NCBI GenBank assembly: GCA_051294375.1
Contig: CM119264.1
Coordinates: forward strand, 12,154,263-12,218,262
Source of the DNA: Paraspadella gotoi
Taxonomy: Eukaryota > Animalia > Chaetognatha
Direction: 5' to 3'
Length of the DNA stretch: 64,000 nucleotides
Shown one piece after another: positions 1-12,700 of the stretch. Positions within the stretch are counted from its first letter, which is position 1. Every line of letters begins with the position of its first letter. Under the pieces are notes generated by a model. It worked only from the letters and a program-made list of their open reading frames with translations, did no database searches and was not told the DNA's origin. Position numbers and translations under genes: made by a program.

Positions 1-2216
1 TAACCTTAAGGGAGAAAAATATTTGTAAATTTAAGTCCATTTTAACGAAATATGTTTTTATACTTTTCTCTTTGATGAATACTTAATATTTACAGTTTAT
101 ACCGTAGTAATTTAGCTAAATTTTTGGCCCGTTTGATTATATCTATCGTCCCGTTGAAGTCGTAACTAAAATTTAGCCGAGTAACAAGGTAAACAAACTG
201 AAGTGTTTCAATCTCTCGAATCTTATCGATAGTCGTCGTCGTCGTCCGCTATCACTTCTCTTCACCTCTGCCCCTCTTTGCCCGGTCTCCTCGATGACGC
301 CTTGAACTTGAGCGATCTCCTGTTGGTTCCCGACTAGCTTGTTCTTTTGTTCTTGAATCTCCTGTTGTAATTTCTCCGGCGATGGAACGATGTCCCGATT
401 GAGATTCTCCACTTCCTCCTTCAAAGTTGCCTTTCGCAATTTCAGGTCGTCGTTAGACTTTTGAAGCTCGGATGCTTCCAGCTTTAGATGACGAATCTCT
501 GGTCAGTTTTGAAACATTTTTAGAAAGTTGTAGGGTCGATGACAATGTACTATAGTAAATATGAATTAAACTAAGAGCAAAGTTTCCCTAGTCAATAGTA
601 ATCCATCTCACTTGTGTCAAGTTCGGCCTGGCTTGCTTTGAGATCATCAATGGCTTTTCGCTTGTCCTCGATCTCAGCTTTTTTGGACCGAACCAGATGA
701 ACGTTTTCTTCACGAATCTTTAGCCGATCATTGATCCACGACTTTGTTTCGTCAATTTGTTGTCGAAGTCCTTCTGACTGACTCCGAGCTTTCTTTTCGC
801 GACTACCAAATGTAAATAAAAAGAATATAAAAATCAAGTAATAAATAAAACAGATTCTACATCAATCCAGCATTATAAAAAATTGGCGATCCCGGAGTTG
901 AATACGCTCTGGAGGCTTATGGGAAAACGAAGAAAGATAAAAAAATAAATTTCGTTTCTATACGGAAAAGAAAATTTAAGACTAACAACAATTATAATAA
1001 AAACGTTGATAAGCTTCATGGGCGAAGGAATTTTTTTTTAAAATATTAGTATTTATAGTATTTTTTTTCGTTGCTTTAATAGATATTTATAAAATAACAG
1101 TTTTTATTTATGATTTTAACGATCATTTAATAATTGGGACATGTTTCGGTTTTTGTTCTTCGAACCTTCATCAGCCAGTTTTGATAGTTTTGAAAAATAT
1201 TTGGATTCTAACTTTGAGAGAAAGAGAGAGGCAATTTTAACCTTGATATCCTTTCTCTCTCTCTCCGAATTATTAAAAGATCGTTGTAATCATAAATAAA
1301 AACTTATTGTGTAAATATAATTATTATATTTTTTTATAAATTTATTAATATTAAAATATTTTTTTTAAATTTTCAATTATTATATACTTAAGCTAAACTT
1401 AAGTTTAACCCTAACTTACCCCTAATCTATTTTTAACCCTAACTTATTTTTTTTGTTATCTTACACTTATTCTTAATTTATTCTTATCCATAATTTATTA
1501 TAACCTTAATTTTTACCCAAATATATAACAAAAATAACAAATATTTAAAAATTGTGATATCTGAATTCCTTTTATTTTTTTCCTAGAAATTATCCTTTTC
1601 CGTTACATTTCTTTCGTTCCTCTTCTTTTTCCGTTAATTCTTTATGAAAAACCTTGCTCTTTGTTTTCCATATGCATCCAGAGCGTATTGATCTCCAGGA
1701 ATGCCAAAAAATTACTTGACTATATCGCTGGACATGCTGACTGTGTCCTCGCGATGTCGGCAAAAGTTAATGATGGCGCTGAGAATTTTTTCTAGACGCT
1801 GAGGATTAGGAGTGGTTATGTCGGCAAGCTTGAAGTCAGTGTAGCGACACGTGTATAAAAACCAGGACATAACCTTCGATAGGCGCAAGTACACCATAAA
1901 ATCGTTTTGAAGCTCGGGAAATGGGAGAGCGCTGTTCTCTTCGAACGTTAACATTGTGAGCTGCTCCGCCTTAAAATAAGAAGAAAGTGAGGTTGATAAA
2001 CACCCGGTAAGTTTCGAGTCTCCCACTTAGACTCGGTCTCACCCGAACGTCAAAAACGAAGCAAAGAACGTCGATGTAGATCTGTTGCCACTTGGAAGGT
2101 GTCGGTTTGCGCAGATCCGCAATAGTAATGGCCGAGGAGGGAGGGACAATCTCGTTGAATTCGCTTATGATTTCGTCCTGCTTAAGAATCGGAAAGTCGT
2201 ACTGACTTTGCGCCAT
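1..2216 (-). CDS. NUF2: Kinetochore protein Nuf2 (Ndc80 complex); multi-exon, 3' end runs off the window
   Basis: N-terminus MAQSQYDFPILKQDEII...DLRKPTP and DFKLADITTPNPQRLEKILSAIINFCRHRE match the Nuf2 CH domain. Downstream coiled-coil exons contain IVPSPEKLQ. Introns are GT-AG. Confidence 0.9.
883..1707. mobile_element. Non-autonomous inverted-repeat (MITE/foldback-like) element in a NUF2 intron
   Basis: TGGCGATCCCGGAGTTGAATACGCTCTGGAGGCTTATGGGAAAAC (from ~883) is the near reverse complement of GTTTTCCATATGCATCCAGAGCGTATTGATCTCCAGGAATGCCA (ending ~1707). An inner inverted repeat pairs ~1101-1135 with ~1268-1302. Confidence 0.7.
1132..1180 (-). ncRNA. Minimal type I hammerhead ribozyme (Penelope-like element type)
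   Basis: Minus strand reads AACUGG-CUGAUGA-A-GGUU(loop)AACC-GAAAC-AU-GUC-CCAAUU. The catalytic core boxes are intact, stem II is GGUU/AACC, stem III is the palindrome ACAUGU, the cleavage triplet is GUC and stem I is UGG/CCA. Confidence 0.8.
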
Positions 2217-2451
2217 TTTTATATATATTTATATTTATCTATAAAAGGAAAGAAGCGCAGCAAATGAAAATCAGAGAATCAAATATAAAAATTCAAAATA
2301 GATCGCCATGATTGTTGAGCATCATGTTAACAGAAATGTTTTAAAATAAGAAATAAATATGAATATTGTTCCGATTTTTAAATAAAACCGACATTATAAA
2401 TTTTTTTAGTTAAACATTGAACAAAAAAATAGATTCATTTCGAAGAAACAA

Positions 2452-2965
2452 ATGTCTACGTTGTGGCAGGATCAGACGAAGTTCAGATCAAGAATAGTTT
2501 ATTCTTCAAGAGTAATTACAAAAGTCAATAACAAAAGATGCAAGTCTAAGTGTAGCAGAATAATTTGTGGTTCATTTCAAATGAGATTGAGTTCTTCAAT
2601 CTCATTTACATATGTAGTAGTTTGGACCATTCTCATATCTTTTGATACAGTTTTCATAATAGCCTTATTTTACGGTTTTGGCAATAGTTTTAATAGGTTT
2701 TAATAATGTTTTAGTTTTCCAATTATTATTCAGATATTTCATAGTAGTATTGTTGCTTTATAAATGGAAGTATTTTTCTTGTTCTGGGAGACTGGCTCAT
2801 GTTTGATAGAAGATTGTTATTGTCAAAGGCCTAGCTATTAATCAGCTAGGATTTCAGGGTCGGTTTGAACCACTATGCCCTTTTCTTAGCTTGCCACTTA
2901 TAATATAATAACCATCATGTATCTTGTGTAATATTAATAATGTTAAGGTAGCAATAAAATAAATA
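2452..2965 (+). mobile_element. Possible decayed 3' end of a non-LTR retrotransposon
   Basis: The degenerate peptide KCSRIICGSF resembles post-RT motifs of LINE ORF2, and the segment ends in an AATAAAATAAATAA tail. Weak. Confidence 0.3.
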
Positions 2966-3639
2966 ATGTTATTAACCACTATAGCTTCTCTTTATTAATT
3001 CATAAACATTATCAAGTAGAACAGCAAAAAGAACAATGCGAGCATTCTACCACTAAACATAAGGTCAACAATAAATAATAATATAAGATGCCCCCGTTAG
3101 ATAAGCATAAATACAAAGAGAGAGAGAACCGTTATAAGGTCAACGAGGTCACACGGTTAGTGAGAGATTTGATTTGATTTGAATAGATTCTATTGCACCT
3201 GGAATGTTTTATCATTCCTTAAGGCGACATTAGTTCAACAGTGTGTTACATTAAAATTTTTATGTCTACTACAATTATAGACCGTGAATAAAAGCTTCTT
3301 ACTGAACAGAACTGTACATGTTCAATATCCTAGTTTGACATAATCGATATCCTAGTTTGACTCGAATCCTATTCCCCAACTTTCTTTACTCTACAAAAAT
3401 AAAGACAGATTTAATAACGCAGATTCGGTGCTATATAGTAGCACTGTCGTTTGCTAAAAAGTATTTTAACACAAGTTGCAGTAAACAATGGTACAGTAAA
3501 TAGCGATAAGAGTTCATTTACGGTTATGTAATTATACATAGAGGTAATAATTACGGAAATATCTACAGAGGGATTACGAGCTACACCCTTTAGGTGTATA
3601 ATTTCATGGTCCGCCAATCATACTAGATAAAAGTTTCGT

Positions 3640-11117: not shown

Positions 11118-11346
11118 TATCTCTTTTCTGAAAAGTAATTCAAAACCGGGTACAGTAACTTGAAAACCAACTAAAAAAACAACGAAACGAAAAAACCAGC
11201 ATTAGCCTGGTTAAACGATTTCTCGCGCAATAATATAGAAGGGTGGATAAAAAAGTGCTTGTAGAGATTCGCCGATTGTCTTGACTCGAAGTTGGCGCCG
11301 GAACCGAAACCGACAATCGCGAATTTAGCCCGATTCGACGAATAAA

Positions 11347-12460
11347 TTAAGAATCAGCGTTGTCCTCGATCTTCGGCGCTAGATAGTAGCGGACGTAGCC
11401 AGCGTTGTCGCCGATTTTGTACTCGACGACGAGGGGGACGTCGGCCGACATGGACAACACCACTTGCGGCGACAACGGCGTCGCTTTGCAGAAAAAGTTT
11501 AGGTAGCGGAGGGCGAAAGTCAGCGTTACCTAAAAATAAATATTAATGATGGAGACGGAATTAATTAATTGATTAATGACGGCGCCCGCCGGCATCCTCA
11601 CAACAATCACCCTCTAACATTAAGGCATTTAAAATCTACTACCACTACCGAAAGTCCAGGATAGGCTATTCACCTTCTCTTGCATGTCAATGACGACTGC
11701 TTCCTCCGCTTTGTCCACTGACGCCGTCTGAGCCAGTTTGATGTTTCCGGTTCCGACGTCTCCCTGAGCAGAAAACTGGACGCCTTCTTTGTCGCACTCG
11801 ATAACGACGGAGTCGCCCAACTGAATTAAGAAAACGTTTTAAAATTCAACGACTAAATAAACATAAGAAATATTTGTTAATACTTATCCAATTTTTTTTT
11901 TCAACCTGGGAAAGATCCCGACAAATCCTCTGGAACTCGGCGGAAGGCAACTTGATGATGCAAGAGTAATCTGTCTCGGGGATTCCAAGATGTTCACCAT
12001 CCAAATCCATTTGCTTAATCTCGTAGTCCGATACCTTGCCCCCGTTGGGATTCTAAATACAGAGAGCGGTAAGTTTAATAGCGAATCCGAATATAATGGA
12101 TATAATGTAATATAATATAATGATTTGACTATAAAAAGATAAACTGACCTCAAAAACGAAAGAAACTGTGTCGCTCTTGTCGCCCGACTTGATAGTGATT
12201 GCGTCGTCGTTTCCGGCACACTTGATGACCTTCGCCATAGTGCTAATATTGAGAGCCATGGATACGTTTCGATCGCAGCGGAAGGTCTCGAAGGCCTCCG
12301 TCTTGAGCAACAAGGAGCAGAGCGAAACGTGGGAAGAGTCCATGGCCTGAAGGCTCATCCCGGATTCGCTGCAATCCCACGTTCCCTCGTCGATGAGATT
12401 GTTCACCGAGTCCAAGACCTTCTTCAGCAGTGAGGCTTGCGAAAGTTTCGCTTCGAACAT
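11347..12460 (-). CDS. PCNA: Proliferating cell nuclear antigen, 4 exons
   Basis: [16 protein letters not shown]...[11 protein letters not shown]...[33 protein letters not shown]. Confidence 0.98.
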
Positions 12461-12574
12461 TTTCACTCGATTTGTGAAACGGAATACAAGTAGAAACTAC
12501 AAGGGAGAAAAATACTTTCCGAATGAATTCTGCATAGAAAAACACCCGACTCGATCGAATACTTTTTCCCCTAA

Positions 12575-12700
12575 ATGTTCGCGAATAAACGATACATACT
12601 AATAATTCCTTTATTAACGTAGGAGCCAGACCCGCCAAAAATGTTCAAGTCTCGGCAGAACAACAACTGTATCAGACTTTCCCGCTTTCCTTCCTATTGG
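12575..12700 (-). promoter_or_regulatory. Putative E2F/NF-Y promoter upstream of PCNA
   Basis: TTTTGGCGGG (minus strand, 12631-12640), TTTCCCGC (12678-12685), TTCGCGAA (12578-12585) and a CCAAT box (12696-12700), all within 240 bp of the PCNA ATG. Confidence 0.6.

Follow-up and report, generated by a model that had tools for sequence, protein, structure and literature searches.

Animal operons are usually portrayed as groupings of housekeeping genes that have little function in common. In the chaetognath Paraspadella gotoi, nearly half of the genes are trans-spliced and 18% lie in operons, with candidate operons defined by gaps <250 bp (PMC12460157). There is no operon-specific leader in P. 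gotoi, operon genes dominate its germ-line markers, and operon enrichment is reported for nitrogen and protein metabolism, the longest operon comprising ribosomal, ubiquitin and proteasome genes; the terms 'cell cycle' and 'E2F' are absent from the main text of that report (PMC12460157). In Spadella cephaloptera, RPS14 and PCNA form an operon that is resolved by the leader; PCNA is the second gene, and three bases separate the poly(A) site from the acceptor (PMC2481426). On these published data, most short gaps between same-strand chaetognath genes are expected, as a prior, to belong to operons. The locus described here lies in a 64-kb stretch of genomic DNA (the window, to which all positions refer) and consists of five consecutive genes: PCNA, a sororin-like gene, RAD51, TPX2 and NUF2. 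On balance, we lean toward the view that PCNA > sororin-like > RAD51 > TPX2 form one operon that has an E2F-like promoter above PCNA and is resolved by spliced-leader trans-splicing. The mechanism is already known in the phylum; what is unusual is a membership made up entirely of cell-cycle genes.

All five genes are read from the minus strand, in the order PCNA (11347..12460), sororin-like gene (8678..11117), RAD51 (7046..8520), TPX2 (5055..6813) and the 5′ part of NUF2 (1..2216), which extends past the left edge of the window. PCNA has four exons and 262 residues (263 codons with the stop), RAD51 has seven exons and 348 residues, and TPX2 has three exons and 418 residues. These three genes and NUF2 were named from single exons by their matches to Pfam (PCNA_N and PCNA_C, Rad51, TPX2 and Nuf2, respectively). 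In a public run that is not registered as RNA, 17 GT-AG introns of the window are joined, which shows that it contains spliced RNA; 14 of them are in the array (three in PCNA, six in RAD51, two in TPX2 and three in NUF2). Once the exons are joined at the RNA-defined introns, the frames of PCNA, RAD51, TPX2 and the partial NUF2 are open, with zero internal stops. The stop-to-ATG spacing is 229 bp between PCNA and the sororin-like gene (gap 1), 157 bp between the latter and RAD51 (gap 2), 232 bp between RAD51 and TPX2 (gap 3) and 2838 bp between TPX2 and NUF2 (gap 4). Even when counted from stop to ATG, the first three gaps are shorter than the 250 bp used for chaetognath operons, in favor of an operon. 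The original prediction for this stretch had listed five non-paralogous minus-strand genes in tandem, and its genes, strand and gap lengths were all reproduced when recomputed. The strand bias extends to all 13 identified host genes of the window, each of which is on the minus strand (p 2e-4). PCNA is the first gene of the array, with a serine/arginine-rich (SR) protein gene 1982 bp upstream of it, and is the likely head of the operon.

The identity of the second gene is less firmly established. Sororin (CDCA5/Dalmatian) is characterized by a KEN box, an FGF motif, a lysine/arginine (K/R) cluster and a C-terminal domain with two phenylalanines (PMC11148194). In the window protein, which is encoded by a gene with no intron seen, pattern matching and inspection by eye located the same motifs in the same order: KEN at residue 112, followed by FGF, the K/R cluster and, at the terminus, a motif containing two phenylalanines. 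The C-terminal helix was predicted with a predicted local distance difference test (pLDDT) score of 72–85, within a single-sequence fold that was poor overall (mean pLDDT 54). Atlas gave leads to Sororin_C and Sororin_middle at 0.80–0.85, under the Atlas 0.9 mark, and no match to sororin was obtained among Pfam families, in 612 homologue candidates (0/612) or in a PDB search. Based on the motif layout and the sub-threshold Atlas leads, the gene likely encodes sororin; the label that it had been given earlier therefore fits the layout but has no significant profile or sequence match behind it. As assembled, the frame is interrupted by four one-base indels, all within a 24-bp tandem array (10097..10569, minus strand) that lies inside the frame and comprises ∼20 units coding for Ser-Pro-x-Lys. 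The indels are likely assembly errors; the RNA contigs matched to the window give no cover of 10091–10599, which includes the array. The ∼20 copies of the eight-residue Ser-Pro-x-Lys unit look like an array of CDK sites and could be a phosphorylation switch.

PCNA gives an indication of the lineage of the window. When PCNA exon 1 was used as the query, 48 loci were retrieved, of which a single one, an intron-free plankton contig (L001), was close, at 88% over the exon. L001 (1–2553, plus strand) carries a leader end, PCNA, a 793-bp gap and CDK2. Its first 16 bases are identical to the 3′ end of the chaetognath leader SL2.0 (Table 3 in PMC2481426), and L001 is the one locus of the 48 with a leader-end match at base 1, for which the chance expectation is ∼4e-7. 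Around PCNA in the window, the 16-base leader motif does not occur, also when two mismatches are allowed. Across the whole of PCNA, identity to the window protein is 90.1% for L001, 74–75% for three further proteins and 67–72% for five named animals. A quick tree of 69 of the 120 matches, together with the window and L001, placed these two within a seven-row clade with a support of 99 (the clade holds one long-branch row). For APC2, which is also encoded in the window, two relatives were found at 72–75% and named animals at ≤55% among the 120 matches listed, and a quick tree of 36 of these matches, in which the window grouped with two proteins on a long branch, did not identify the phylum. No named chaetognath protein was present among the matches of the homologue searches. 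The grouping of the window PCNA with a sequence that bears the chaetognath leader makes a chaetognath affinity highly probable, and from the leader on the L001 PCNA we infer that the species of the window uses a spliced leader as well.

Transcription across the gaps was followed in the assembled contigs of one RNA run of one study (two sister runs gave one and zero matching contigs). A 4185-nt contig contains 8405–10090 and 5946–7169 unbroken and spans gaps 2 and 3, from the 3′ part of the sororin-like gene through RAD51 into TPX2. Its coordinates sum exactly once the six introns of RAD51 are taken out, the two joints of TPX2 have the depth of this contig, and eight introns in total are removed along the path sororin > RAD51 > TPX2. 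This contig is compatible with read-through transcription. Such a bridge is confined to gaps 2 and 3, and none of the listed pieces crosses gap 1 or the whole of gap 4. The PCNA contig ends at 11259, where a further 27 letters of it find no match, and the NUF2 contig reaches 2198, with 2199–2359 lacking contig cover beside a repeat that was skipped in the matching; neither end is evidence either way. Much of gap 4 is covered by contigs with a few differences. No leader was found among the contig loose ends that were inspected (8/109 and 6/18).

The candidate shared promoter (12632..12700, minus strand) is located upstream of PCNA, where E2F-like motifs occur at positions 12639 and 12678 together with a CCAAT box at 12700. 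The patterns used for E2F, for the cell cycle genes homology region (CHR) and for other promoter elements were general consensus sequences. Two strict E2F-like sites were counted where 0.11 were expected (p 0.006 in 500 shuffles, uncorrected for the number of tests), and among 13 regions tested the one upstream of PCNA was the only one with a significant strict count. The claim that the clearest E2F/CCAAT cluster stands above PCNA was thereby confirmed. Judged by its sequence, a pyrimidine-rich AG (12497..12512, minus strand) that lies 36 nt upstream of the PCNA start codon is a candidate leader acceptor. The 348 first-exon letters of the PCNA RNA contig extend to 12496, the base right after this AG, which is a hint of the point at which a leader ending in A and a genome sequence ending in G would part. 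The upper ends of contigs fall directly after an AG in two of three genes (PCNA and APC2, not NUF2), with a chance of ∼5% each.

Acceptors before the downstream genes were evaluated with a matrix built from the 17 RNA-confirmed introns, and the best site ≤80 nt before each ATG was ranked against 159 non-coding windows. The confirmed acceptors end in CAG (six), TAG (six), AAG (four) or GAG (one), and the AAG site directly before RAD51 is therefore legitimate in kind. The donors of these introns are degenerate, with nine different four-base starts, and with such donors and a small matrix no acceptor-like site can be called unpaired. The AG sites that had been proposed 10, 0, 35 and 22 nt upstream of the start codons of sororin, RAD51, TPX2 and NUF2 are present at these positions. 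The NUF2 site is the strongest and was bettered or equalled in only 3 of the 159 windows (0.019), the best sites of sororin, RAD51 and TPX2 rank at 0.13, 0.60 and 0.16, and the combined p for the four genes is 0.034 with this small matrix. The proposed sororin and RAD51 sites themselves score low (1.6 and −2.2 bits), and an AG at −53 before the sororin-like gene scores 7.0 bits.

In the operon that we favor, the polymerase would start near 12600 under E2F control and run through at least to the end of TPX2. Polyadenylation of each upstream gene would take place within the short T-rich gap, and splicing of a capped leader of 36 nt to an AG shortly before the next ATG would also strip the upstream ATGs that lie in the gaps. 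The unit would switch its genes on or off together in dividing or germ-line cells and would not act as a clock, with phase timing set after transcription, for example via the KEN box of the sororin-like protein. Transcription of 10 kb lasts minutes, so the order of the genes cannot time the cell cycle. Three early genes and two late ones can be arranged in 10 orders, and the S-to-M order that the original prediction had read into the array, being one of these, is not meaningful. In mammals, the promoters of early and late cell-cycle genes carry different elements (PMC4994865). Under a single promoter, the two classes would be combined in a simple switch for proliferation.

Several observations weigh against a single leader-resolved unit. 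The bridging contig is an assembly path and not a molecule (such contigs are paths through a simplified graph; Logan preprint), and overlapping transcript ends or a slight DNA content would also join genes. APC2 and the SR-protein gene, which are 739 bp apart, likewise share one spliced contig, and such joins are not rare in this data. The acceptor-like sites before the downstream genes are weak, barely above chance. The end of the PCNA contig is also explicable by a short 5′ intron, and contigs cannot reveal starts. In L001, the 793-bp gap between PCNA and CDK2 contains four CACGTG (E-box) motifs within 125 bp, which suggest a separate promoter for the second gene. The neighbors of PCNA differ in all three chaetognath loci compared (RPS14 in S. 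cephaloptera, CDK2 in L001 and the present array; the copies may be paralogues), and the gene order in relatives does not support conservation of the cluster. The gap before NUF2 exceeds the 250 bp used for chaetognath operons. The remaining points concern gap 1 and are described below.

Whichever mechanism applies, the exclusive cell-cycle content could have arisen by chance among the growth and germ-line genes that are enriched in operons, and not from selected co-regulation. In the window, 8 of 13 genes are cell-cycle genes (the five of the array, PARPBP, MCM7 and APC2), which corresponds to p 8e-6 at a background of 10%, 1e-3 at 20% and 0.02 at 30%; as the window was picked for this property, these values are an upper bound on the surprise. 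The number of runs of five cell-cycle genes expected among 5061 operon-type genes is 0.002–0.05 if 5–10% of them are cell-cycle genes and 0.3–1.3 if 15–20% are (a rough estimate with an assumed fraction), so that the lower fractions argue against chance and the higher ones for it. Chance is further favored by partners that are not kept between species, as in RPS14 > PCNA of S. cephaloptera (PMC2481426), and by the mixed functions of the second tight cluster of the window (PARPBP, MCM7, VPS33, SELENOS). The share of cell-cycle genes in the window and the presence of CDK2 behind PCNA in L001 point the other way. We regard chance content as a serious possibility, although less likely than not.

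The main rival to a single operon, a division of the array into two units, is unlikely. In this arrangement, the promoter above PCNA would be joined by a second one in gap 1 (11118..11346, minus strand), driving sororin > RAD51 > TPX2 alone or beside read-through from PCNA. Gap 1 has a looser E2F-like motif at 11298 and a CHR-like motif at 11144, and its observed/expected CpG ratio of 1.95 is the highest of the four gaps (0.57 and 0.62 in gaps 2 and 3; 1.31 in the 302 bp above NUF2). This CpG richness and the two motifs might resemble an internal promoter. Internal promoters, of which 693 were found, are common in Oikopleura operons (PMC6389100), and the bridging contig covers only the part from the 3′ end of the sororin-like gene to TPX2. 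However, both motif counts are at chance (p 0.31 and 0.33), and the gap is below the 250-bp chaetognath criterion and carries AGs at −53 and −10, the former being the high-scoring site mentioned above.

Still less probable is a tight cluster of separately promoted genes, in which transcription would start in the gaps or in the tails of the upstream genes, a leader could still be added and the contig would be joined via overlapping ends. The limits of the contig and the weak acceptors described above are compatible with it, and most trans-spliced genes of P. gotoi lie outside operons (about half of the genes are trans-spliced and 18% are in operons; PMC12460157). Gaps 2 (8521..8677) and 3 (6814..7045), both on the minus strand, speak against it, as they are T-rich and CpG-poor and contain no significant promoter motif; gap 3, with its AG at −35, has no E2F, CHR or CCAAT pattern. 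Gap 2 contains four upstream ATGs, the last of which is 25 nt before the RAD51 ATG, so RAD51 requires a leader or a start very close to its own ATG. AATAAA is absent from gaps 1–3. An unresolved polycistronic RNA, translated by re-initiation or internal entry without leader splicing, would agree with a contig that keeps both gaps while its introns are removed and with the leader-free loose ends, but it is very improbable given the upstream ATGs in the gaps and a lineage in which a leader exists and is placed on PCNA, and leader junctions are short branches that this contig assembly and matching would presumably drop.

The extent of the proposed operon depends on gap 4 (2217..5054, minus strand), a repeat-rich stretch with the strongest AG site, at −22. 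Approximately 500 bp of it, near 4456–4960, resemble the end of a non-LTR (long terminal repeat) reverse transcriptase by motif, with no Pfam or PDB support. The earlier description of the gap as largely retroelement remnants goes beyond this ∼500-bp piece, which has no library match; the remainder is repeat-like. Repeats are known to stretch operon gaps in Macrostomum lignano (PMC8629364), and it is conceivable, at somewhat less than even chance, that NUF2 is a fifth operon member displaced by repeat insertions. An operon of all five genes is a more tentative proposal still. Of the original operon claim, the core gains support from a lineage with published leader-resolved operons, the leader on the L001 PCNA and the spliced contig over gaps 2 and 3, and the five-gene extent is less likely than not. 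The 913-bp intron of NUF2 harbors a pair of inverted repeats of ∼56 bp (86% alike; 1083–1318) that resembles a miniature inverted-repeat transposable element.

Elsewhere in the window, a second tight cluster on the minus strand comprises PARPBP > MCM7 > VPS33 > SELENOS (64000–54740), with gaps of ∼188, 218 and 107 bp. It likely forms another operon, headed by two S-phase genes. PARPBP, a PCNA-interacting partner, was identified by named matches and has a C-terminal motif resembling a PCNA-interacting protein (PIP) box. The SELENOS frame ends in Gly-TGA-Gly-TAA (54740–54760, minus strand), which would fit selenocysteine read-through; an Rfam scan gave no match in the 64-kb window, and no search for selenocysteine insertion sequence (SECIS) elements beyond Rfam was made. 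APC2 and the SRSF3/7-like SR-protein gene occupy 18372–13818 on the minus strand, and the APC2 contig has its upper end just after a CAG located 15 nt upstream of the first APC2 start codon. A contig of a beta-heavy-spectrin-like 3′ tail and the APC2 contig end 89 nt apart (18462–18372), a spacing like that in operons. Plus-strand open frames in the spectrin introns (26083–26595, 34720–35022 and 35975–36286) have no Pfam match above the cut-off and are possibly pieces of mobile elements. A dispersed short repeat, with copies 83–97% alike, is found in introns and gaps at 13532–13840, 23960–24012, 46234–46340, 49441–49880 and 57581–57914, and the contig depth over 13520–14103 is very high.

A broader proposal is that arrow worms gathered a proliferation regulon into operons, with the five genes as one E2F-driven transcript and selection keeping cell-cycle genes together while their partners reshuffle. 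Further cases would be PCNA > CDK2 in L001 and, at a distance of 50 kb in the window, PARPBP > MCM7. We consider this proposal doubtful. If it were true, this would be a bacterial-style functional operon for animal cell division, with early and late genes under one switch. A run of four or five core division genes that share a single E2F-type promoter would clearly contradict the view of operons as bags of housekeeping genes, and it predicts that post-transcriptional control at this locus takes the place of the mammalian separation of G1/S and G2/M transcription. The locus also makes it testable whether operons exist to co-activate growth and germ-line programs. A literature search, in which subscription papers were mostly outside the scope, found no all-cell-cycle operon, and the published table of P. 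gotoi operons may already list this cluster.

When the locus is compared with known systems, the gene content has its counterpart in mammals. We take sororin, RAD51, TPX2 and NUF2 to be members of the mammalian DREAM/RB-E2F/MMB-FOXM1 regulon. This regulon contains the same kind of genes, with PCNA named as a G1/S gene, but its genes are scattered and have their own promoters, the early ones with E2F sites and the late ones with CHR elements (PMC4994865). The proposed arrangement, in turn, resembles the SL2 operons of Caenorhabditis elegans, in which one promoter, gaps of ∼100 bp and leader trans-splicing are combined (PMC2776167, PMC7986045). In Oikopleura dioica and M. lignano, leader-resolved operons are tied to maternal or stem-cell expression (PMC6389100, PMC8629364), and E2F1 is found at maternal promoters of O. 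dioica (PMC6389100), similar to the E2F-like sites above PCNA. These animals belong to other phyla and use other leaders, and the available parts of the two reports describe no all-cell-cycle operon (PMC6389100, PMC8629364). The RPS14 > PCNA operon of S. cephaloptera shares with the present locus the inferred phylum, a tight same-strand cluster with PCNA and the leader family that is found on the L001 PCNA; it differs in that PCNA is downstream of RPS14 and that sororin, RAD51, TPX2 and NUF2 are not in the examined part of the gene list of the bacterial artificial chromosome (PMC2481426). The published operons of P. gotoi differ from the array in their reported enrichment, which is in nitrogen and protein metabolism, and resemble it in having several genes and gaps <250 bp; as proposed for the array, they are resolved by a leader, and they are enriched among germ-line markers (PMC12460157).

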